NCBI GenBank assembly: GCA_002441095.1 | Contig: DJVG01000038.1 | Location: 5,222 to 69,221 of the forward strand | From: Elusimicrobia bacterium UBA6262 | GTDB lineage: Bacteria > CAYTYR01 > UBA6262 | Direction of reading: 5' to 3' | Length of the DNA: 64,000 bases | Part shown: positions 4,389-16,262 of the stretch, in pieces | Numbering within the stretch: position 1 is the stretch's first letter | Layout: every line of letters begins with the position of its first letter | Position numbers and translations under genes: made by a program | Notes under the pieces: model-generated | Told to the model about the DNA's origin: nothing | The model's input: only the letters and a program-made list of their open reading frames with translations | Databases searched by the model: none

Positions 4389-4508
4389 AGCTTGCGGGAG
4401 AGCTGTATTTAAGTTATATTTATAGTATAGGGACTATACTTGATTACACAGATTAAAAGCAAATAGGTTCAACCTGCTATATTTGGTCAATTAATGTTCG
4501 GAGGGTGC

Positions 4509-7265
4509 ATGCGTTTTAGCAAGATCATTTTTATGCTTATAATTTTTTTAACGCTGGCGGTTAGCTCAACTCGGGCGGCCGAGCAGCAAAAAGTAAAAAG
4601 CCTGCGCATTGACGGGAATTTGACTTTTGACCTCTTGGCGCATAAACTTCAACCAGGGTGGAGCATCTATTCCAGTAACCTGGCGAAACTCTATACCCAT
4701 GACCTTATTTCCACTGATAAGTGGCATTATGTCGGCGGGCAGACGCTGAATGTGGACTTTTCCTACCGGCCCAGCAAGAACTGGACCATGATGCTGGGCA
4801 TTCTGGCTATCGGCAGCTATGCTGACCGTTTTTATATCCCTATTAATGATGAGCATCGTCTGAAATATAACAACCAGAAGATCAAATGGACCAGAGGAGA
4901 AGTCGCATATAAAGGTGACCGTTTCCAGGCGTCGCTTAACGGCGGGCTGGGCCACTACCATTGGGAAAATGAAGGCGATATGTTCCAGCTCTATCCGGAA
5001 CAATTTGATGTTTATAATTACCGCCGGATCAGCGGCCGGCAAACGCCGCGCGGCCTGGACCTCAAATATGCCGGGGATTTTGGCAAGCTGGAATTAGTGC
5101 ATGGCGCGGAGCTGGTCTGGGGCGACCATACTTCCACATATGGCAAATATAACTGGCGCTGGGGCTATTTCAATAATGCTTTTATTTTCAAAAATGCGCG
5201 TATTTCCTGGGGTGAAAAACCCAAAGAACATTTAAATGCTTACGAACTAACCAGTAAAATTGATATGATCGAATCGGTACCCATTGACTTGGGGATGCTG
5301 TATCAGCCATTCCGCCTGGGCCGGGAATTTCTCTATGTCGAAGAAACAGGCTCCAATAATTCATATACTATCCCCGACAGCACGGCGACCATCAATACCG
5401 GTTCACGGCTGATTAAGTCCGGGACTACCAGTACCAGTGATGCGATCGGCTATAAAACCAAAGTTGGGTTCAGGTTCATTCCAGGGATTGAAGAAGTAAG
5501 CGTTGGTTATGCTCATCTGGGCGCGAGCGCCGGTAATAAGCAAGAATATTCAGGCGGGCTGAAGAAAGAAATTAATGCTTTTACTAACCTGGACTTTACC
5601 GGTATTTACCAAAAACCGATTTACGGCCCTTTACCGTATCTATTCGAAGGAGCGGCAACTGATCCCGGAGCCGGGGTGCTCAGGCCGCGGGCCAGGAATG
5701 ATGCTTTCTGGGTGACTATGGAGAACCGGCAGGCGCATATCTATAAATTAACCCTGAACTTTGACCCTACGCCCAGCAGTTGGTTATACCTGTGGCAGCC
5801 GAATATACTCGAAGAATGGAATATGAATCCCAAGGAAGATGCCACTATCGCCCTGGCTTTCCAGTACCAGGCACGCAAATATCCGACCACGACTGACCGT
5901 TGGTACTACCGGACCCGGGATGATGATATCCTCTGGGAAGGCGAATCAGACCCGACCAAAGAATTCTGGGACTATCGTCCCTGGGGTAAATGGCCTACTG
6001 GCTGGCTGCACAGCTTTAATACTATGATCAGGCTGATACCGGCACCTACCTACAAATACTGGATTAACCTGAAATGGGGACAGGATGTAGCGACCGGGGC
6101 TCTGGCTTATACTCATGATACTGATGAAAATAAGCCCATCACTAATTATTTCCTGGGCACTGTCTGGCTGGATAAGAAACCTTACAAAGCCAGCGCCACC
6201 ATCGGCCGGGATGTCTGGGGCTGGGAAGAGTGGCACCAGCGGTTCGGCGGGACCAATGACCGGTTATATAAGTTTTCTCTCAGCCGGACCTGGGAAAGCG
6301 CGCCTTTTGAATCTACTGACTCTACCTTGGGCGTTGAATATGTCGGGATCCGGGAGAAAGATAACCAATATGTTTATCCCGAGCTGGGCTCCTTTAATGA
6401 ATGGCGGCTTTTCTTTAACCTGCATTTTGGTTCCCTGATGGTCTTCCACAAGGAGGAAGAAAAACCAGTGGTGGTAGAAGAAGGACCAAGCCGGCCTACT
6501 GTCAGCTTGACCGTTATGACGCCGGTATTTACTCCCGGCACGGGTGATAATCCTGAAGCTGTTTTTGCGCTGGCGGCCGCGGATAATAAAGGCCTTAAAT
6601 CCTGGGAGATCAGTATCCTGGATATAAATGACAATCTAATGCAGACTTTATCCGGCAAAGGCCAGCCGCCGCTGGAAAAAGAATGGGATGGCACTGACTT
6701 GGCCAGCAAAGAGACTGCTCCTGAGGGAGATTATAAAGTCATTTTCAAAGTTATAAACATGTCTAACAAATCAGCTAAGACTGATCCGCAGGTAGTGACC
6801 TTGCAAATACCGCAGATCGATATAGCCAAGGAAGTCCTGGCCGAAGCCCCGGTTGAGCTCAGGGAAGAAGAAAGAGGATTGGTGATGAATATCACTTCAG
6901 CCGTATTGTTTGACTTTGATAAATCCAAGCTGAAAGCAGAAGCGCTGCAATTACTGCCTGATGTAGTCAAACTGCTGGCTATGTATCCAAATAATAGAGT
7001 TCTGGTCGAAGGCTACACTGATTCAGTCGGATCCGAAGAATATAACCAGAAATTATCAACCCGCCGGGCGACTAGCGTCTATAACTATTTTATAGAACAG
7101 GGAATTGAGCAGGAACGGCTGGAAAAGAAGGGGTATGGCGAAACAAAACCAGTCGCCTCCAACCGCACTAATGCCGGCCGGACCCTTAACCGCAGGGTAC
7201 AGATCATCCTGCTGAAGGAACCGGAAGAGGAAACAATAGGAAAACCGATGGTGGACCCAGAATGA
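4509..7265 (+). CDS. Large outer-membrane protein: N-terminal putative beta-barrel, FlgD-like Ig domain and C-terminal OmpA peptidoglycan-binding domain
   Basis: ATG 4509 follows the RBS ggaggg; signal peptide; about 620 aa aromatic-rich strand region ending WRLFFNLHFG; then EWDGTD...EGDYKV Ig module; OmpA motifs VLFDFDKSKL, EGYTDSVGSEEYNQKLSTRRA, GYGETKPVASN, NRRVQI. Confidence 0.8.
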   Translation: MRFSKIIFMLIIFLTLAVSSTRAAEQQKVKSLRIDGNLTFDLLAHKLQPGWSIYSSNLAKLYTHDLISTDKWHYVGGQTLNVDFSYRPSKNWTMMLGILAIGSYADRFYIPINDEHRLKYNNQKIKWTRGEVAYKGDRFQASLNGGLGHYHWENEGDMFQLYPEQFDVYNYRRISGRQTPRGLDLKYAGDFGKLELVHGAELVWGDHTSTYGKYNWRWGYFNNAFIFKNARISWGEKPKEHLNAYELTSKIDMIESVPIDLGMLYQPFRLGREFLYVEETGSNNSYTIPDSTATINTGSRLIKSGTTSTSDAIGYKTKVGFRFIPGIEEVSVGYAHLGASAGNKQEYSGGLKKEINAFTNLDFTGIYQKPIYGPLPYLFEGAATDPGAGVLRPRARNDAFWVTMENRQAHIYKLTLNFDPTPSSWLYLWQPNILEEWNMNPKEDATIALAFQYQARKYPTTTDRWYYRTRDDDILWEGESDPTKEFWDYRPWGKWPTGWLHSFNTMIRLIPAPTYKYWINLKWGQDVATGALAYTHDTDENKPITNYFLGTVWLDKKPYKASATIGRDVWGWEEWHQRFGGTNDRLYKFSLSRTWESAPFESTDSTLGVEYVGIREKDNQYVYPELGSFNEWRLFFNLHFGSLMVFHKEEEKPVVVEEGPSRPTVSLTVMTPVFTPGTGDNPEAVFALAAADNKGLKSWEISILDINDNLMQTLSGKGQPPLEKEWDGTDLASKETAPEGDYKVIFKVINMSNKSAKTDPQVVTLQIPQIDIAKEVLAEAPVELREEERGLVMNITSAVLFDFDKSKLKAEALQLLPDVVKLLAMYPNNRVLVEGYTDSVGSEEYNQKLSTRRATSVYNYFIEQGIEQERLEKKGYGETKPVASNRTNAGRTLNRRVQIILLKEPEEETIGKPMVDPE

Positions 7266-7966
7266 AAAAAATAACCTCAGTGAAAATTATAATGATGATC
7301 TTGATGGGAATGTTTCTGGTGTCCTGTGAGAAAAATCCCATCACCCGCTTAACTGATCCGTTTGAGGAGGGAGCGCTGAATACCTGGAGCGGCGTCTTTA
7401 AAATTTATGACGATGACTTGATCACTGGCGGCAATGTGGCTTTTATCCCTTCAGACCTGTCTCCGCCGGATAATAATATGACCCTTGATTTCCTGCATAC
7501 GAGTAATAATCCTCCGGAAGGAAAAAAATGCCTGCGCTTTTCCTGGAATGGCCAGGACCAGGATTGGAACGGCAAGAATGAACATGACTGGGCCGGTATG
7601 AGCCTGATCGTGGCTACTCACTGGTCGCTCTATGATGCGACTCCGAGCAAAGACTTATCTGCCGGCGGCTATACCAAGATCACGTTTAAAGCTACCGCTA
7701 TCATTGATAGTAATACCTATGTGAAATTTGAAGGGCCGATCTCCACGACTACTGCTGCGCCGGCCAGGGGCGGCACCAGGTACCTGCGTTTGAATAGCAC
7801 TGAACTGGGTGATTGGCAATCCTACACTATTAATCTTAGTAACGCTGATTTCAAGTCAGTAAAAGATTATTTTAAAATCGTGATCGAGTATCCTGCCGGG
7901 ATCGGTACTACTTCATACGGTAACGGGGGTATCGTGCTGGTTGATGATATCAGGTATGAACGATAA
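7262..7966 (+). CDS. Lipoprotein with CBM-like beta-sandwich domain
   Basis: Lipobox LVS-C; motifs EGKKCLRFSW, DWAGMS, WQSYTINL and terminal VDDIRYE shared with the downstream paralogues. Confidence 0.7.
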   Translation: MKKITSVKIIMMILMGMFLVSCEKNPITRLTDPFEEGALNTWSGVFKIYDDDLITGGNVAFIPSDLSPPDNNMTLDFLHTSNNPPEGKKCLRFSWNGQDQDWNGKNEHDWAGMSLIVATHWSLYDATPSKDLSAGGYTKITFKATAIIDSNTYVKFEGPISTTTAAPARGGTRYLRLNSTELGDWQSYTINLSNADFKSVKDYFKIVIEYPAGIGTTSYGNGGIVLVDDIRYER

Positions 7967-8012: not shown

Positions 8013-8651
8013 ATGTTCAGCTGCAAGCAGGTATTAAGGATCTTGGTATTAGCTCTGGCCGGAATAATGTTCATGTCCATATCTGCGGTTTCAGCGCGGG
8101 AAGCGGCCACTAATTTTAATTCTCGTACGCCAGGAAATGCGGCCCTGCGGTCGTTGATGCTGCCTGGCTGGGGGCAGTTCTTTAATGAACAGCCAACCAA
8201 GGGTTTTATTTTTGCCGGAGCGGAAATAGTAGCTATTGGGGCTGCTGTCATGATGAATTCCAGCGCTAATAGTGTCTATAGTGATTATGAAACGCAAAGA
8301 ACCCAAACCCTATATAATAGCTATTCCAGTAAAGTTGATACAGCTAATATGTTTGTCTATGCTGCCGCAGCTATTTGGGTCGGCAATGTAATTGATGCCT
8401 ATTTTTCGGCTGATAGCGGGACCAGTACAAAGAGTAAAAAAAGCAGCACCATCAAGAAAAGCACCAAAAAGAAGAAGGTAGTAGAAGAAGAACCGGAAGA
8501 AGAGTATGAGGAAGAAATAGAAGAGGAAGAACCTGCTGAAGAGGAAGAAGAGTATGAAGAAGAAGATGAGTCGAAATTACCGGAAAGAGGCTTTTACCTG
8601 CAAGCTAAAGGATTACACCAGTTAGGAATAGCATACCGCTTTACTTTCTAA
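8013..8651 (+). CDS. DUF5683-like exported/membrane protein with Lys-rich then Glu-rich tract
   Basis: Signal peptide; ALRSLMLPGWGQFFN motif; hydrophobic helices; EEEPEEEYEEEIEEEE tract; ends LGIAYRFTF. Confidence 0.6.
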   Translation: MFSCKQVLRILVLALAGIMFMSISAVSAREAATNFNSRTPGNAALRSLMLPGWGQFFNEQPTKGFIFAGAEIVAIGAAVMMNSSANSVYSDYETQRTQTLYNSYSSKVDTANMFVYAAAAIWVGNVIDAYFSADSGTSTKSKKSSTIKKSTKKKKVVEEEPEEEYEEEIEEEEPAEEEEEYEEEDESKLPERGFYLQAKGLHQLGIAYRFTF

Positions 8652-8679: not shown

Positions 8680-9288
8680 ATGTTCAAGAAAAGCTTATCA
8701 ATACTTGCATTGATCGGGATGAGTATAGGGATATGTATGGTAGTTGCGGCGGCAGCTGCCAGCGGCACTTTTAAGATGTTTCCTGTCTATACTGATGCTA
8801 AATCAGCTGATAATCATTATATCCCCAGCGGCTGGATGGGTGATTATGGTGATCTTAAAGTAAAGGATATGTATGCTGAAAATCCGCACAGCGGGGCTAC
8901 CTGCCTCCAGTGGAAATATAATGCCAAAGGAGCGCAAAATGCCGGCTGGGCCGGGGTATATTGGCAGAATCCGGCGAATAACTGGGGCAGTAAAAAAGGC
9001 GGCTATGAATTAACCGGCGCAAAAAAATTGATATTCTGGGCGCGGGGAGAAAAAGGTGGTGAGATAATTGCTGAAGTAGGGGTTGGCGGCATTACCGGGA
9101 AATATGCCGACACTGACAAGGTAAGTGAGGGTCCAATTAAGCTTTCTAAAGAGTGGAAAAAATATGAGATCAATGTAAGCGAGGCTGACCTGACGTATAT
9201 CAGCGGCGGTTTTTTCTGGGTGGCTAAGGGCGAAGATATGCCTGAGGGCGGCATGACCTTTTATCTTGATGATATCAGGTTTGAGTAA
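8680..9288 (+). CDS. Secreted stand-alone CBM-like protein, paralogue 1
   Basis: Signal peptide; PSGWMGDYGD...WAGVYWQNPANNWG...FWARGEKG...YLDDIRFE. Confidence 0.75.
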   Translation: MFKKSLSILALIGMSIGICMVVAAAAASGTFKMFPVYTDAKSADNHYIPSGWMGDYGDLKVKDMYAENPHSGATCLQWKYNAKGAQNAGWAGVYWQNPANNWGSKKGGYELTGAKKLIFWARGEKGGEIIAEVGVGGITGKYADTDKVSEGPIKLSKEWKKYEINVSEADLTYISGGFFWVAKGEDMPEGGMTFYLDDIRFE

Positions 9289-9318
9289 AAACTTAAGGAA
9301 GAGGGGGGGAAGCAAAAC

Positions 9319-10002
9319 ATGAGAAAAGTAATTCTCATCAGTATTTCAGTGTTAGCAGTGATGGCAGCCAGTTTTTCGGCGATCACTGTGTTTTCGCAAG
9401 GCAAGATTTTCAATGTGCAGGTACCGGTTATTAATGCTGCGCCTATTGGAAAATCCATCAATCCTGATGGGGGGAAGACCGGATTCAAGTCATTCCCTAT
9501 TTACACGGACAAGAATTCCCCGGATAACCATTATGCGCCAAGCGGCTGGATGGGTGATTACGGGGATATGCGCCTGACTGACCGGTGGAGCCAGAATCCG
9601 CACAGCGGCACAACCTGTATCCAATGGAAGTATGTGCCGAGAGGCAGCCAGGGAGCTAACTGGGCCGGGTGTTTCTGGCAGAATCCCGCGAATAACTGGG
9701 GTTCAAAAAAGGGCGGCTATAACCTGACCGGAGCCAAGAAGCTGGTATTCTGGGCCCGCGGCGAAAAAGGCGCGGAAAGACTGGCTGAAGTGGGAGTCGG
9801 CGGCATCGACGGGGAATACTCTGACAGCGACAAGATCAGCATCGGTCCTATTGACCTGACTAAGGAATGGAAAAAGTTCGAGATCGACCTGACCGGAGCG
9901 GATATGAGCTACATTAGCGGCGGTTTTTTCTGGGCAGCCAGCGGTGACGATGTCCCTGAAGAAGGGGTCACGTTCTATCTGGATGATATCAGGTTTGAGT
10001 AA
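9319..10002 (+). CDS. Secreted stand-alone CBM-like protein, paralogue 2
   Basis: Same domain; about 70% identical to paralogue 1 over about 170 aa without gaps (manual count). Confidence 0.75.
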   Translation: MRKVILISISVLAVMAASFSAITVFSQGKIFNVQVPVINAAPIGKSINPDGGKTGFKSFPIYTDKNSPDNHYAPSGWMGDYGDMRLTDRWSQNPHSGTTCIQWKYVPRGSQGANWAGCFWQNPANNWGSKKGGYNLTGAKKLVFWARGEKGAERLAEVGVGGIDGEYSDSDKISIGPIDLTKEWKKFEIDLTGADMSYISGGFFWAASGDDVPEEGVTFYLDDIRFE

Positions 10003-10034
10003 GTCATATTTATAGATATGGAGGTGTATAAGCA

Positions 10035-10805
10035 ATGAAACTGCGTAAAATAATGATCTGTTTAATGGTCCTGCTGATGGGCGTAGTCATCTTGTCCACA
10101 GCCTCAATTGTGATCGGGGCAGTAATCGAGGATGAGGATGCGGCACCGGTAAAAAAGGCAGCGAAAACTAAAGTAACCCAAAAGAAAGCAGCTGTTGAAG
10201 CAGCTGTTGAGCCGGAGATAGAAGCAGAGGCGGCGAGTGAAAGCCCGTCTGCTCCTGGAGAGAAACCTTCCCGTACGAAGAAAGTCACTGCCTATCCTTT
10301 CTATGTTTACGAGAATGGGGCATCCAAACTCAATCACTTCTATCCGAGCGGCTGGATGGGTGATTACGGTGACTTGAGAGTGAATGTGAAAGAAATGGTC
10401 AATCCGCATTCAGCGCCAAGCTGCGTGAAGATCTCTTATACTGCTAAGGGTAAGAACGGCGCAGGCTGGGCTGGCATCTATTGGCAGCAGCCGGCTAATA
10501 ACTGGGGTACAGCTAATGCCGGGTATAATATTACTGGCGCCAAAAAGCTGACCTTCTGGGCGCGCGGCGCCAAAGGCAATGAAGTGATCAATGAGTTCAA
10601 AGTCGGCGGTATCCAGGGCGAATACGCGGATACAGATGTAGCAGGTATCGGCCCGGTGAAACTGACCACTGCCTGGAAAAAGTATGAGATCGACCTGGCT
10701 GGCAAGGACCTCAGCCGCATAGCCGGTGGTTTCTGCTGGGCAACTTCAGCTGACGAAAATCCAGACGGTTTTGAAATTTTCCTGGATGATATCATGTTTG
10801 AGTAA
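10035..10805 (+). CDS. Secreted CBM-like protein with Ala/Glu/Lys linker, paralogue 3
   Basis: Signal peptide, GAVIEDED then low-complexity linker, same domain ending LDDIMFE. Confidence 0.75.
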   Translation: MKLRKIMICLMVLLMGVVILSTASIVIGAVIEDEDAAPVKKAAKTKVTQKKAAVEAAVEPEIEAEAASESPSAPGEKPSRTKKVTAYPFYVYENGASKLNHFYPSGWMGDYGDLRVNVKEMVNPHSAPSCVKISYTAKGKNGAGWAGIYWQQPANNWGTANAGYNITGAKKLTFWARGAKGNEVINEFKVGGIQGEYADTDVAGIGPVKLTTAWKKYEIDLAGKDLSRIAGGFCWATSADENPDGFEIFLDDIMFE

Positions 10806-10861
10806 TGATGACAGAAACCGAAATCTGGAATTTGGCATTTGAAATTTGAAATTGCTTTTTA

Positions 10862-10994
10862 TTACGGGTTTCCCTCTGCTTCTCGAAGGAATGGTAAAAA
10901 TAAGCCGACAATGGTGATTGTTCTATAGTAGATATAGCAACATCCTGTTTTGAGGCAAATATTATGCCGTTCTTCAGAGCAGAGGGACCTGTAA
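10862..10994. ncRNA. Predicted 133-nt rod-like structured element (candidate ncRNA or MITE)
   Basis: Nested complementary arms: 10862-10880 with 10978-10994, 10885-10896 with 10965-10975, 10899-10906 with 10954-10963, and terminal hairpin 10916-10944. Confidence 0.4.
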
Positions 10995-11005
10995 GAACTG
11001 GTTCG

Positions 11006-11053
11006 TAGTTTCAGCCAGAGGCTGATCCGCCTTTGGCGGAGATAGTTGATAGT
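11006..11053. repeat. 48-bp REP-like twin hairpin, copy 1
   Basis: tagtttcagccagaggctgatccgcctttggcggagat(a/t)gttgatagt; second copy at 48187-48234 with 1 mismatch. Confidence 0.85.
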
Positions 11054-11076
11054 AAAAGCAAAAAAATGAGGTACTT

Positions 11077-11841
11077 GTGAAAAAGTACTGTGTGTTCATA
11101 CTTATAGGAATACTCTGCTTTGGCAGCTCAGGTTTGACTGGGGCGGTGATCGAGGAAGATGAAACGCTATTGCCGGAGCTGTCTGATATTATTGAAGACC
11201 AGGATCCTGAAGAAGCGGAAATAAAGGTAAAACCAAAAGCAAAAAGAAAACCAAAAGCAAAATTGAAAGAAGAAGCAGCAGCAGTAGCAGAAACAGAGGT
11301 AGGGAGCAAACCTGAAGCCCCGGTATTTAAGGGGTTTTTAGTATATGAAGACAAGACCACCGGCGGCAATCATTATGCCCCCAGCGGCTGGATGGGCGAT
11401 TATACTGACCTGAAATTGGATTATGGCTATAAGAAGAAACCGCATCAAGGATTAACCTGCATCAGGATAGAATATAATGTCAGGGAATCACAGCGGGCCG
11501 GCTGGGCCGGAATGTTCTGGCAAAATCCCTCAGGCAACTGGGGTGAAAAAAAAGGCGGCTATAATTTGACCGGCGCGGCCAAGCTCACTTTTTGGGCGCG
11601 CGGCGAAAAAGGTAATGAAAAGATCAAAAAGTTCAAGGTAGGCGGTATCAGCGGGACATATCCGGATTCCTGTTCCGTGGATTTTGGACCGGTAGTATTA
11701 GGAAAAAAATGGCGTAAGTACACTATTAACTTGAAAAATAGGGACCTGTCATATATAAACGGCGGTTTTTGCTGGGTAGCTGTCGCTGGCGACAATCCGT
11801 CTGGGATCGTGTTCTACCTGGATGATATTAAATACGAATAA
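11077..11841 (+). CDS. Secreted CBM-like protein with charged linker, paralogue 4
   Basis: GTG start after gagg; signal peptide, GAVIEEDE, Lys/Glu linker, same domain ending LDDIKYE. Confidence 0.75.
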   Translation: MKKYCVFILIGILCFGSSGLTGAVIEEDETLLPELSDIIEDQDPEEAEIKVKPKAKRKPKAKLKEEAAAVAETEVGSKPEAPVFKGFLVYEDKTTGGNHYAPSGWMGDYTDLKLDYGYKKKPHQGLTCIRIEYNVRESQRAGWAGMFWQNPSGNWGEKKGGYNLTGAAKLTFWARGEKGNEKIKKFKVGGISGTYPDSCSVDFGPVVLGKKWRKYTINLKNRDLSYINGGFCWVAVAGDNPSGIVFYLDDIKYE

Positions 11842-11878: not shown

Positions 11879-13177
11879 ATGAAAGTATCCAGAAAAGCCG
11901 CAGTGTTCATGCTCCTGATCGTCTCTCTATCTTCACTCTTTTTTGCCTGCAGTAAAAAAAGCAAGCTGGACCCGCTGCCATCCGGCCCGGCCATTACCAA
12001 TGTGGACAGTATCCCCAGCTCTACCAGCGCTACGATCACCTGGACCACTGACGTGTCAGCCACTTCTAAGGTATATTATGGCACCACCAACAGTTTTGGC
12101 AGTTCCACCACTGAAACTGCCAGTACCACTAAGAACCATTCTGTCAATATTACCGGCTTGGCTGTTAATACTGACTATTATTATTATGTTGCCAGTAAGG
12201 ATGCTGCCAACAATACTTCCACGGCCGGGGAAGATGGCAGTTATATATTTACGACCACAGCGGCTGGCCCGGTAATTTCCGCGGTCACGGATAGCGCCAG
12301 CAGTACCAGCGCCACTATTACCTGGACCACTGACGTGGCAGCAACGACCCAGGTTTTTTATGGTACCACCACCGGGTTTGGCAGCCAGACCACGGAAATT
12401 GATACAGGTACCAATATGAAAACCTCTCACTCAGTGACCTTGACTAGCTTGAGTACCGGCACTAAATACTATTATTATGTGCGCAGCAGGAATGCTGCCG
12501 GCAATGCCACTACTTTAGGGGATGACGGCACCTTGGATTTCACCACTACCAGTACTACTCCTACGGCAGATATGTATCTCATGATCGATGATATCCAGCT
12601 GACCGGGACCACGGGGACTACATTTGATATTTATACTGATGATTTTGGTGCTGTTTTCACCGGAGGCACAAATAATTTAGCTTATATGGGCTCAGCCGCA
12701 GACGGCAGTGCGCCGAATATCAGCGGTGATTCTGAAGCTACCTATACCGGGGATAAACATGCTGGTACAGCTTGTTGGCGTATTCCCATGACCGTCGGGA
12801 CATCCTTAAGTTGGGATGGGATATATGTCTTAGCCACCGGCCTATGGAGAAACCAAATTCCCTCTGACCCCGGGGCTGACCTGTCTGGTCCTACCGGCAC
12901 GGTAACGCTGAGCTGCTATGCCAAAGTTTCCGGCATTACCCAAACCAAGCTTAAGATAGGCATCGGGGACGACAGCGCCTGGACTGATCCTCTAAATATT
13001 GAAAGTTTCGGGACAGTTGGCAACAAGGCTTCATGTAAGAAAGCCAGCGCTATAGGTACTACTATTAGTAATACAACCTGGACCAAGATATCTGTTACTG
13101 TGGGGACAGATCCCGACCTGACAAACATTAATGGCGTATTCTTCTGGTCCATGTCCATGGCTGATGTTACTCCATAA
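11879..13177 (+). CDS. Lipoprotein with two Fn3/purple-acid-phosphatase-N-like repeats and a divergent CBM-like domain
   Basis: ATG 11879 after agggaggg; lipobox FFA-C; two repeats SATITWTTDV.AT..V.YGTT..FG...H.V.(I/L)T.L...T.YYYYV.S.(D/N)AA.N; Thr-rich linkers. Confidence 0.75.
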   Translation: MKVSRKAAVFMLLIVSLSSLFFACSKKSKLDPLPSGPAITNVDSIPSSTSATITWTTDVSATSKVYYGTTNSFGSSTTETASTTKNHSVNITGLAVNTDYYYYVASKDAANNTSTAGEDGSYIFTTTAAGPVISAVTDSASSTSATITWTTDVAATTQVFYGTTTGFGSQTTEIDTGTNMKTSHSVTLTSLSTGTKYYYYVRSRNAAGNATTLGDDGTLDFTTTSTTPTADMYLMIDDIQLTGTTGTTFDIYTDDFGAVFTGGTNNLAYMGSAADGSAPNISGDSEATYTGDKHAGTACWRIPMTVGTSLSWDGIYVLATGLWRNQIPSDPGADLSGPTGTVTLSCYAKVSGITQTKLKIGIGDDSAWTDPLNIESFGTVGNKASCKKASAIGTTISNTTWTKISVTVGTDPDLTNINGVFFWSMSMADVTP

Positions 13178-16100
13178 GAGCAAATACTTAATTGTTCTTT
13201 TTTGCTGTCTAGGCATAACCAGGACAGCCTGGCCGGCAACGGTGGCTATCGGGAAGGGCAGCTATACTACAACGCTGCCCTCTTCTGTACCCAGCAGCAA
13301 ACGCCCGCCGACAGCGCAATATGTCACCAGTAATATTACCGGGCCTGTACCTACAACCAAATGGTATTCATCATTGATCAGTTCTGCGTATTCTTCCTGC
13401 CATTTTGCGTATCCTTTAGCTATGAATGTCACTAATGCGGCAACGTACACTGGCTTGGAGTTTGGCCTGCCGGTCGTGACTGCCCAGGCTGATGGCGTGG
13501 TCGCTCTGCTGGAACAGGACCTGGAAATACGCGGCAATATTGGCGGGCGTTACCTGAAAGCAGACAATGTTAAAGTGGACAGTTACAGTGACTGGACAGT
13601 GTCGCCGTTCTGGCAGGATAACACCAGTACAGAGTATTTCCAGGCCACATATGGCCGCGGCTTACTGTTTATTTACTTAAATTATTCGGCTAACTGTGAT
13701 CCCAGGATCCTGGCAGGAGCTGATTTTGAGCAGGTTTTTGATGAGAATGGTACTGTTGCCGCCGGCACTATCAGCACTGACCATATTGGTGTTAAATATA
13801 AGAATGTATATTACGGCTTGTTTGCGCCGACCGGGTCTACCTTTACTATTACCAATAACCAGGTCAGCGTCGCCCTGCCGGCGGGTTCGAGATATTTTTC
13901 CGTTGGGTTAATGACTAAAAGTGCTGACCTGTCCTACTTTTACCAGCATGCATATGCTTTTGTGACTGATACCCAGGTGTCCTGGGCCTATAATGAAACT
14001 ACCAACGATATAGCCACTACTTTTTCTTTGACTACAGAGTCTAAACAAGGTAATCAGGATACGGCTTTAATTGCCTTGTTGCCGCACCAGTATAAAAATT
14101 CCAGCGAACCGGTTTCCAGCGTCTATACCTACACTACCCTGCTGGGTAAAATGAAATTGCTGGAAGCTAGTACTTTTACGGTGACTAATAAATTTTATGG
14201 TGTTTTGCCTTATTTGCCGGATAAGGGTAGTTATGACAAAACGCACCTGGCAGACTTGTTAGCCAGGGATAAAGATTCCTCGCTGTCCAAGACCGATACT
14301 TATTTTAACGGTAAACAGGTAGCGAAGATAGCTAATTTGATCCCCATCGCTGACCAACTGCAGGATACGGCGACCAGGGACTACCTGGTCAGCCGCCTGA
14401 AGACTGTCCTGGTCAACTGGCTGACCTATTCCTCAGGTGAAACGAACAGGTTTTTCTATTATGATAATATCTGGGGCGGCCTGATCGGTTACGGTGCGGA
14501 ATTTTACGGCTATAATTATACCGACCATCATTTTCATTACGGGTACCTGGTTTATGCTGCGGCTTTATTAAGCCTGTATGACCGCTCTTTCAAAGATGAT
14601 TACGGCCCGATGATAGAATATCTGGTCCGGGATTATGCCAGCTCGAACAGGGATGACACCATGTTCCCGTTCTTGCGTCATTTTGACCCTTACCTGGGAC
14701 ATTCGTATTGTGACGGGTTAGCGCAGTCTGATTATGGCAATAACCAGGAATCTTCATCCGAGGCCATGAATGCCTGGGCCGGCATGATCCTGTGGGGCAT
14801 GGTCACCAATAATGATACTATCCGGGATGCCGGTATTTACGGGTATACCACAGAATACAGCGGTGTTCATGATTATTATTTTGATGTAGATAATGATATC
14901 TTTCCGGCAGAATATGCGCACCGGATCACCGGCATACTGTTTGACGGCAAAATCGAATACACGACCTGGTGGACCGGCGCTGATGAGGCTATCTATGGCA
15001 TCCAGATGATACCCAGTACTGCTTCTATGCTCTACCTGGGATATTATCCGGATTACTGTGAAGACAGCTACGACGCTTTTTTTGCGGACAACGGCGGTTA
15101 TGAGAATTATGATTATTGGTATAATATCCTCTGGCAATTCCAGTGTTTTTATGATCCTGATTTAGCCATCAGCAAGTATAATGAGAATGTTAAGATAGAC
15201 ACTGATGGGGACAGCTTCACTTTTCTCTATCACTGGATCCATAATTTTTTAGAGTTAGGGCAGGTGGATATCAGGGTGCATGCAAATACGCCCTATTATG
15301 CCGTATTTAATAAAGCCGGGACCAGGACTTACCTGGCTTATAATGCCGAAACCGTTATCAAACAAGTTTCTTTCTATGGCCCTGGATATTTGGGCAGTAT
15401 TTATGTAAAACCTGGCAGGATGGCTGCTGCCACGGCTTTTGCCTGCGAGGTGACTGCTGTTACTCCCAGTTCAGCAGCTAATTCAGGCCCAAGCGCTATC
15501 ACCATAGAAGGCGCTGGTTTTCAAAGAGGATTACAGGTTTTCCTGGTCCGGTCAGGGCAGGATGATGTTGCCGCACTCGCGGTAAACTATGTCAGCGCTA
15601 ACAAGATCGCAGCCGAATTTGATTTAACCGGTTTAGCGCCCGGAGATTGGGCTTTGGTGGTAATTAATCCGGGAGGGGATATAGACACGGCCAAGAATAT
15701 GTCGTTTAGTATCACTGGCTATACCCCTACAGTCAGGATGGTTTCACCAAGCCAGGCCAGTAACAAGAACCAGGTCAGGGTCCAGGTTACTGGAACAAAT
15801 TTCTACAACGGGGGTCAAATAAAACTGAGTAGGACCGGCGAGACAGATATTGTGGCTACTGAAAATACCCGCAGTTCAATGACGCAAATTTCCGGTTTGC
15901 TGGATATCCGGAATAAAAAACCGGGCCGGTGGGATGTGGTAGTCACTAACACTGATGATAAGACCGGGACCTATGCCAGCGGCTTTGAAATAACCCAGAG
16001 TGACGCTGTCTATGTTTATCCCAATCCGTGTAAGCTGGCCCAGAACAAAATAGTATATTTTGCCAATATGTCCCACCAGGCGGCAGTAAGTATTTATGAC

Positions 16101-16262
16101 TTAAATGGGGAGCTGGTTTTTTCAGCCAATAATATTTTGGCCAATCCTTACGCCTGGAACCTGAAAAATAATTCAGGGCGGGGGATAGCCAGCGGGATTT
16201 ATATGTATGTGATCCAGGAAGGCGAGACCATAAAAAGAGGCAAGATAGCGTTCATTAAATAA
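13164..16262 (+). CDS. GH81 endo-beta-1,3-glucanase with two IPT/TIG-like Ig domains and C-terminal T9SS/FlgD-type domain
   Basis: GH81 signatures PTTKWYSS, YTDHHFHYGY and NNQESSSEAMNAW. Signal-like N-terminus from ATG 13164. C-terminal VYPNPC...SIYDLNGELV...GIASGIYMY...KIAFIK. Confidence 0.9.
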   Translation: MLLHKSKYLIVLFCCLGITRTAWPATVAIGKGSYTTTLPSSVPSSKRPPTAQYVTSNITGPVPTTKWYSSLISSAYSSCHFAYPLAMNVTNAATYTGLEFGLPVVTAQADGVVALLEQDLEIRGNIGGRYLKADNVKVDSYSDWTVSPFWQDNTSTEYFQATYGRGLLFIYLNYSANCDPRILAGADFEQVFDENGTVAAGTISTDHIGVKYKNVYYGLFAPTGSTFTITNNQVSVALPAGSRYFSVGLMTKSADLSYFYQHAYAFVTDTQVSWAYNETTNDIATTFSLTTESKQGNQDTALIALLPHQYKNSSEPVSSVYTYTTLLGKMKLLEASTFTVTNKFYGVLPYLPDKGSYDKTHLADLLARDKDSSLSKTDTYFNGKQVAKIANLIPIADQLQDTATRDYLVSRLKTVLVNWLTYSSGETNRFFYYDNIWGGLIGYGAEFYGYNYTDHHFHYGYLVYAAALLSLYDRSFKDDYGPMIEYLVRDYASSNRDDTMFPFLRHFDPYLGHSYCDGLAQSDYGNNQESSSEAMNAWAGMILWGMVTNNDTIRDAGIYGYTTEYSGVHDYYFDVDNDIFPAEYAHRITGILFDGKIEYTTWWTGADEAIYGIQMIPSTASMLYLGYYPDYCEDSYDAFFADNGGYENYDYWYNILWQFQCFYDPDLAISKYNENVKIDTDGDSFTFLYHWIHNFLELGQVDIRVHANTPYYAVFNKAGTRTYLAYNAETVIKQVSFYGPGYLGSIYVKPGRMAAATAFACEVTAVTPSSAANSGPSAITIEGAGFQRGLQVFLVRSGQDDVAALAVNYVSANKIAAEFDLTGLAPGDWALVVINPGGDIDTAKNMSFSITGYTPTVRMVSPSQASNKNQVRVQVTGTNFYNGGQIKLSRTGETDIVATENTRSSMTQISGLLDIRNKKPGRWDVVVTNTDDKTGTYASGFEITQSDAVYVYPNPCKLAQNKIVYFANMSHQAAVSIYDLNGELVFSANNILANPYAWNLKNNSGRGIASGIYMYVIQEGETIKRGKIAFIK

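Follow-up and report, generated by a model that had tools for sequence, protein, structure and literature searches.

Can the strand that closes a beta-sandwich domain move to the front of that domain in a natural protein? This question is raised by a locus of Elusimicrobia bacterium UBA6262, which lies in a stretch of 64,000 nucleotides (contig DJVG01000038.1, positions 5,222 to 69,221) that we refer to as the window; all coordinates below are those of the window unless another contig is named. When we scanned all of the open reading frames (ORFs) of the window with a hidden Markov model (HMM), we found exactly six copies of a domain that resembles carbohydrate-binding modules (CBMs). Five of these have the normal order of strands, and the sixth is the C-terminal domain of a predicted lipoprotein, encoded by 11879-13177 (Table 1). 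A sequence-only reading of this DNA had proposed that the sixth copy is a natural circular permutant, with its terminal beta-strand shifted to the N terminus. Four lines of evidence support this: the conserved architecture of the homologs, collinearity with a tandem profile, the likeness of the N-terminal strand to the C-terminal strands of relatives, and the order of strands in AlphaFold2 (AF2) models. We consider it very likely that the C-terminal domain of 11879-13177 is a real natural circular permutant of the domain encoded by the five neighboring genes.

The boundaries of the domain can be read from the translation. The domain has about 200 amino acids, begins with ADMYLMIDDIQLTGTTGTTFDIYTDD, and finishes with NGVFFWSMSMADVTP directly before the stop codon (13175-13177). 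The motifs that the sequence-only reading had listed (FDIYTD, HAGTAC, WDGIY, DLSG, WTKI, and DLTNINGVFFW) are all present in that order, and the chain does halt just after the GxFFW strand, a few residues past GVFFW. The reading also held that a terminal strand of the xxLDDIRFE type closes all of the other copies, which is true of all five (their shared pattern is [FYV]L[DV]DI.[FY]E), and it placed MYLMIDDIQL at the start of the sixth domain, at 12572-12601, which is exact (residues 232 to 241). In BLASTP, the domain is collinear with the paralog at 9319-10002 from FDIYTD to FFWS and the alignment stops there (26% identity, 36.6 bits). Similarly, an HMM of the non-permuted family matches permuted proteins only up to about position 171 to 173 of 187. 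The last proline of the window protein aligns with the conserved NP in the loop before the last strand of non-permuted members. At the other end of the domain, a Gly/Thr connector, which lies within TGTTGTT in the window protein and reads EGTGGT in its orthologs, links the former C terminus of the sandwich to its former N terminus; the pattern [ET]GT.GT is kept in 9 of 10 permuted members.

If the domain is permuted, then its profile should align in one collinear stretch to two successive copies of the normal domain, and with a better score than to a single copy. We took 113 sequences of the non-permuted family with less than 80% identity and made one profile from their alignment and a second one from that alignment concatenated to itself. 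With hhalign, the permuted profile matched the single non-permuted profile across the core only (query 28-201 and template 26-184; probability 99.6, E = 1.9e-23), with scores of 147.6 to 152.7. Against the tandem profile, the scores were 168.5 to 171.7, and the match was one collinear stretch (query 2-187 to template 188-373 in the best run), which begins at the NP.G.TFYLDDI.YE columns of copy 1 and continues through copy 2 to the FFW strand. As a control, we shuffled the order of the 11 strand columns in 200 runs. The shuffled profiles had a mean score of 153.4 (standard deviation, 3.4), and just one of the 200 reached the observed score; that shuffle had recreated IYLDD..YE. We also compared the N-terminal strand to particular strands of the relatives, column by column. 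Its score was 22.5 against the C-terminal strand of the orthologs of 7262-7966 (reached by 0 of 1,000 shuffles) and 13.6 against the C-terminal strands of other non-permuted members (reached by 2 of 1,000 shuffles).

These scores also bear on the best-surviving alternative, which is that the last strand was simply lost and that MYLMIDDIQL derives from an ordinary first strand and came to resemble the last strand by convergence. First strands of the l.DdFE.g type are seen in many CBMs, and the nearest non-permuted relative in our tree, 7262-7966, bears such a strand (RLTDPFEEG). Furthermore, MAFFT aligns ITRLTDPFEE-GALNTWSG of 7262-7966 with the permuted N-terminal strand, column for column. 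However, the column score of the N-terminal strand against this N-terminal segment of the 7262-7966 orthologs is just 6.0, which 101 of 1,000 shuffles reach, as compared to 22.5 when the C-terminal strand of those proteins is used. One of these orthologs has KLQDPTPDG in this position, and with two prolines, a regular strand is unlikely. Also, the other close non-permuted relatives (P0006, P0008, P0010, and P0012) do not have such an N-terminal element. Because the column score is not significant, we rejected an ordinary RLTDPFEEG-like first strand as the main explanation, and a truncation combined with convergence seems improbable.

The predicted structures are consistent with a circular permutation. 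We modeled the permuted domain (residues 219 to 432) with AF2 from an alignment of 26 sequences, and obtained a predicted local distance difference test (pLDDT) score of 83, a predicted template modeling score (pTM) of 0.81, and 11 strands. In this model, ADMYLMIDDIQLTG forms a strand of 14 residues (E12-25 in DSSP, in a block with pLDDT of 92 to 97), which is followed by a 4-residue turn, the TFDIY strand, nine more strands up to GVFFWSMS, a short 3-10 turn, and the end of the chain. The model of a paralog (9463-9999; 68 sequences) has a pLDDT of 94.8 and also has 11 strands, which run from FPIY to GGFFWAAS and then, after a 3-10 turn, to the last strand, VTFYLDDIRF. Thus, the two models have an identical cyclic order of 11 strands, rotated by one, and in both, the FFW strand is followed by the 3-10 turn. 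The window protein and its ortholog in L007 share an insertion of about 10 to 15 residues (NIESFGTVGNKASCKK..., at 12992-13036 or about residues 372 to 386) that the other permuted members do not have; it coincides with the sole low-confidence stretch of the permuted model (model residues 153 to 167, pLDDT below 50).

The remainder of the protein is a predicted anchor and a putative stalk. The signal peptide has an n-region, an h-region, and a cysteine (Cys24), and it closes in LFFAC; the lipobox-like end (MKVSRKAAVFMLLIVSLSSLFFAC) has phenylalanines at both -3 and -2, which is not canonical when compared to L-[AS]-[GA]-C. A cysteine after the hydrophobic stretch is kept in all of the orthologs, and we predict that the protein is lipid anchored and held at the membrane as a surface protein. 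The Fn3 region matches PF16656 in two stretches (63.8 bits; cutoff, 30) as well as PF00041 (32.1 bits; cutoff, 25), and a linker rich in Ser, Thr, and Pro separates the second Fn3 domain from the C-terminal domain. We considered whether the strand might be part of the Fn3 and linker region instead: it could extend the second Fn3 domain at its edge, or it could be donated to another molecule, in a strand-swapped oligomer, rather than acting in cis. However, the second Fn3 domain is already complete, and finishes with the strand DGTLDFTTT. Moreover, in the homolog P0004, where CARDB precedes the CBM-like domain, the strand is still joined to that domain, and in the AF2 model, which was of the domain only and had no Fn3, the strand was still predicted with the pLDDT given above. 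This explanation is very improbable.

The search for permuted homologs that the sequence-only reading had suggested turned up nine other proteins with both boundaries. The search had to be sensitive: an earlier word-indexed search for homologs found one relative and a second search, with alignment, found two relatives and was swamped, and the clade came to light only when we queried 1.84 billion representatives exhaustively in HMMER with the two closest sequences. With the window copy included, ten proteins from independent assemblies share both domain boundaries. All ten permuted members start with [YF]L.[ILF]DD[IV] and end 6 to 12 residues past the GVF.W strand. In the HMMER search, P0001, P0002, P0003, and the fragment P0005 end at the same place as the permuted domain of the window, and further permuted members are P0014 and proteins from three species genomes (L007, L009, and L010). 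P0004 (1,245 amino acids) is built differently: the permuted domain is internal, with CARDB in place of Fn3 before it, and the further domains after it do not include a YLDDI-type strand. A divergent permuted protein, encoded by L002:5806-7212, has a lipobox and three Fn3 domains, and its permuted domain starts with MVYLYFDDIEYSDG and ends at the stop codon after IGLFFFTINKP.

Nor does the permuted order look like an artifact. When compared to the 84%-identical ortholog from L007, the ratio of nonsynonymous to synonymous substitution rates (dN/dS) is 0.28 for the permuted domain and 0.11 for the strand and hairpin, and within MYLMIDDIQLTGT, there are 0 amino acid changes and 2 synonymous changes. 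The stop position does not change with the next gene, which is GH81 in the window, L002, and L003 and GH72-like in L001. No YLDDI-like strand or 11-mer is encoded in any frame downstream of 13177, and we rejected a frameshift or a hidden last strand beyond that point for this reason. Although the GH81 ORF does overlap the 3' end of the permuted gene, there is hardly any chance that we are looking at an artifact or a pseudogene (through a frameshift, a misassembly, or recent truncation by the GH81 start, with a chance match at the N terminus), given that ten independent sequences have the same start and end, that the stop is in the same position in L001 with another gene downstream, that no lost strand is encoded beyond the stop, and that dN/dS is low. 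The permuted order is a heritable and conserved feature and is not due to errors in assembly or annotation. Scans of metagenomes and of genomes for the exact pattern identified only 2 and 4 loci, respectively, so either there are few members of the permuted clade or a scan of this kind has low sensitivity.

To place the permuted proteins among their relatives, we left out the moved strand and built a neighbor-joining tree from the core that both forms share. In 100 of 100 bootstraps, nine of the permuted sequences group together as a clade, and this clade is nested among non-permuted members; the nearest are 7262-7966, P0010, and P0006, with 7262-7966 the closest. The divergent tenth member, L002:5806-7212, joins the clade in just 46 of 100 bootstraps, so it might reflect an independent permutation event. 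This protein is the second permuted protein on its contig, where it is located after the GH81 gene; judging by its core, it seems to have more in common with non-permuted members (P0006 and P0010, for example).

Non-permuted proteins of this family are numerous: we found 3,509 hits at E ≤ 1e-3, which are mostly labeled as Omnitrophica, Elusimicrobia, or "bacterium." Of 141 family proteins that we retrieved, 64 have two domains in tandem, and some have three or four. Neither the window paralogs nor the permuted domain had a hit in Pfam or NCBIfam, and none of the 68 family members that we scanned matched a Pfam CBM model, except for one match to CBM_4_9 (E = 0.015). A distant homolog, P0075, has a precomputed hit to CBM_11 (PF03425). 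A sequence search of PDB gave a marginal match to CBM30 (E = 0.34) that covers the last strand of CBM30; a match of the permuted profile to a minor capsid protein (E = 0.009) was judged to be spurious. In contrast to the sequence searches, comparing the paralog model to PDB with Foldseek gave 79 hits at E ≤ 1e-3. The best was CBM30 (1wmx; E = 4.5e-7, template modeling [TM] score of 0.62), and CBM8, CBM29, CBM11, CBM22, CBM4, and CBM16 came after it. By the fold of the AF2 model, the non-permuted domain looks like an uncurated family of CBM30/11-like beta-jelly rolls. FlaA1, a sheath protein of the spirochete flagellar filament (9cyn), was also among the top Foldseek hits (E = 4e-6, TM of 0.46 to 0.49).

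Several observations weigh against a circular permutation. First, on a narrow position-specific scoring matrix (PSSM) for the last strand, made from close paralogs, the N-terminal strand of the window protein scores weakly (-5.6), although it is still the best 11-mer within that protein. The N-terminal strands of its orthologs score 3.1 to 15.3 on this matrix, as compared to a background maximum of 3.3 among 26,693 11-mers from the window. We viewed the matrix of close paralogs as too specific and used the profile-profile tests instead. Second, just six of the sequences in the AF2 alignment of the permuted domain cover the moved strand. Third, when the permuted model was compared to PDB with Foldseek, there were no hits at E ≤ 1e-3. 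The best sensible matches were to CBM22 (4xup_C; query TM score [TMq] of 0.37, probability of 0.89, E = 0.09) and 1wky (TMq of 0.40), and all of these had E > 0.01. This may be due to divergence, to the long loops, and to the low-confidence insertion; because of this result, the fold assignment of the permuted domain rests on its homology to the paralog. Fourth, it is from the models that we infer that the moved strand lies in the exact slot of the missing last strand. Similarly, the first and last strands are presumed to be adjacent in the parent fold because of the predicted strand-turn-strand and what is generally known of jelly-roll CBMs. Finally, no direct intermediate, with Fn3 followed by tandem CBM-like domains, was found.

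How might the permutation have arisen? The permuted domain was probably derived from tandem repeats. Starting with a tandem two-domain ancestor, an arrangement that is common in the family, permutation by duplication would involve truncation at both ends: copy 1 would lose strands 1 to 10 and copy 2 would lose strand 11. The strand that normally closes the sandwich (xFYLDDIxYE) would then be placed first, as MYLMIDDIQL; a short Gly/Thr turn would couple it to the former first strand (FDIYTD); and the permuted chain would end inside the loop that formerly led into the last strand. The conserved connector, the end of the chain at the proline that aligns with NP, and the many tandem proteins in the family all fit duplication followed by truncation at both ends.

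The lipid anchor and the two Fn3 spacers would hold the permuted module off the membrane, beside the secreted GH81 beta-1,3-glucanase. The permutation would also move the tether point to the opposite pole, at the other end of the last strand, and flip the module on its stalk, provided that the first and last strands are antiparallel neighbors. We also considered whether the permutation might be adaptive and not a neutral by-product. In that case, this shift would turn the glycan-binding face of the stalked module outward, and the permuted proteins would be a distinct class of surface receptor within a large and uncurated CBM30/11-like family (at least 3,500 proteins). As the family includes single, tandem, and permuted forms, it would then be a natural system with each stage of permutation by duplication. 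We view an adaptive role of this kind as rather unlikely.

The locus begins with a GH2_C/GH72-like hydrolase that has a tail of the type IX secretion system (T9SS) type, an outer-membrane protein with an OmpA domain, the 7262-type lipoprotein, and a DUF5683-like protein. These are followed by a tandem array of four secreted, non-permuted paralogs (8680..11841, + strand), the permuted protein with its Fn3 domains, GH81, and two more GH2_C/GH72-like genes. The locus is kept in an Elusimicrobia-labeled metagenome-assembled genome (L003/L008) and in others, and GH81 is also the neighbor of the permuted gene in L002 and L003. Given this genomic context, with GH81 and GH2_C/GH72-like neighbors, the product of 11879-13177 is most likely an Fn3-stalked and lipid-anchored glycan-binding protein that serves the breakdown of beta-1,3-glucan.

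Table 1. Domain copies of the window, parts of the permuted protein, and the adjacent glucanase
Feature	Position	Strand	Evidence
Non-permuted paralog, probable lipoprotein, 234 aa, ends IVLVDDIRYER	7262-7966	+	HMM scan, neighbor-joining tree, strand comparison
Non-permuted secreted paralog, ends FYLDDIRFE	8680-9288	+	HMM scan
Non-permuted secreted paralog, ends FYLDDIRFE	9319-10002	+	HMM scan
Non-permuted secreted paralog, ends IFLDDIMFE	10035-10805	+	HMM scan
Non-permuted secreted paralog, ends FYLDDIKYE	11077-11841	+	HMM scan
ORF for predicted lipoprotein with (very likely) permuted domain	11879-13177	+	432 aa
Predicted signal peptide with lipobox-like end MKVSRKAAVFMLLIVSLSSLFFAC, Cys24	11879..11950	+	Read from translation
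Two Fn3-type domains (Pur_ac_phosph_N/fn3 type), residues ~33-126 and ~127-224	11975..12550	+	Pfam
Putative relocated terminal strand ADMYLMIDDIQLTG, residues 230-243	12566..12607	+	DSSP E12-25, hhalign, column scores
Gly/Thr-rich connector TTGT, within TGTTGTT	12608..12619	+	Non-strand residues 26-29 between E12-25 and E30-34
CBM-like sandwich core, strands 1-10, TFDIY to GVFFWSMS	12620..13156	+	Collinear with paralogs: BLASTP, hhalign, alignment, AF2 strands E30-34 to E201-208
Short C-terminal tail MADVTP and stop	13157..13177	+	Alignment
GH81 beta-1,3-glucanase with TIG domains and T9SS C-terminal sorting domain	13164..16262	+	PF17652 (3.3e-61), Por_Secre_tail

Some other features of these loci are worth describing. 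The probable start of GH81, an ATG at 13164 (MLLHKSKY..., MLLHKSKYLIVLFCC...), overlaps the last 14 nucleotides of the permuted gene, and L003 has a comparable overlap of 17 nucleotides, which suggests translational coupling. The OmpA-domain protein (4494-7265) has about 920 amino acids (923 in the window), with a C-terminal peptidoglycan-binding domain and a large N-terminal region that does not match any family. L003 and L005 also have it at the locus head, and it may supply the glucan system with its outer-membrane component. The protein encoded by 8013-8651 (212 amino acids) has a weak match to the DUF5683 / LIC11435 family; its C-terminal half is Glu rich and very acidic and is followed by a short hydrophobic end. 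In the syntenic loci, it is kept between the 7262-type lipoprotein and the paralog array. P0004 is from a different setting. This protein has an ordinary CBM-like N-terminal domain that ends in FRIDDVSL, and then CARDB, the permuted domain, Big_7, and a T9SS-type tail. Its gene (L006:10001-13738) has integrase, resolvase, type I restriction-modification, and TrwB-like genes around it, a neighborhood that hints at a mobile element.

How does this domain compare to known systems? Among proteins of known structure, the paralog model matches CBM30 (1wmx and 2c24), CBM11 (6r3m and 1v0a), CBM29, CBM8, and CBM22, with Foldseek E values of 4.5e-7 to 1e-5 and TM scores of 0.55 to 0.63, but the sequences are just 10 to 15% identical. 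Our literature search did not find a usable published description of the strand topology of CBM11. The closest precedent is the relationship between CBM36 and CBM60, which Montanier and colleagues reportedly described, in 2010, as a natural circular permutation. In both cases, a natural circular permutation relates two groups of beta-sandwich modules of the carbohydrate-binding type. However, CBM36 and CBM60 are calcium-dependent modules in established CAZy families, with solved structures, whereas the two forms described here come from a single uncurated family, are found side by side in one locus, and are known from sequences and models.

The classical permutations of jelly rolls are concanavalin A as compared to favin and the GH16 lichenase of Fibrobacter succinogenes as compared to the lichenases of Bacillus. 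These are also beta-sandwich folds, whose adjacent termini tolerate the relocation of a terminal strand. But concanavalin A is permuted posttranslationally and GH16 is an enzyme, while the change that we describe is genetic, affects a single strand, and is in a noncatalytic module. As for the protein as a whole, the SusE/F-like surface glycan-binding proteins (SGBPs) of polysaccharide utilization loci have a lipid anchor, Ig/Fn3-like spacers, and a distal CBM-like module, and are encoded beside glycoside hydrolases. The 11879-13177 protein is predicted to have the same plan of anchor, spacer, and module, and its gene also has glycoside hydrolases as neighbors; the analogy is only functional. 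Unlike SGBP loci, no SusC/SusD pair was seen in this locus; the neighbors are instead an outer-membrane protein with an OmpA domain and hydrolases with T9SS tails.

Permuted CBMs have been engineered as well: the permutant CP90 of the starch-binding domain RoCBM21 stays folded and has altered affinity and selectivity (PMC3511584). CP90 is man-made, belongs to another fold family (CBM21), and was cut at another site than the window's domain. Overall, the permuted domain is a further example, from a family that is not curated, of something already known; since circular permutation has already been documented for CBMs and for other jelly-roll domains, the principle is unchanged. What sets this case apart is that the permuted gene and five non-permuted paralogs are in one locus and that tandem relatives, which are possible intermediates, are common in the family. 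For these reasons, it is well suited to research on the origin of permutations and on whether they alter the presentation of ligands by a surface protein on a stalk. Moreover, it points to a large family of beta-sandwich domains that has a CBM30/11-like fold and no model in Pfam or NCBIfam, and that is associated with GH81 loci in poorly studied phyla.

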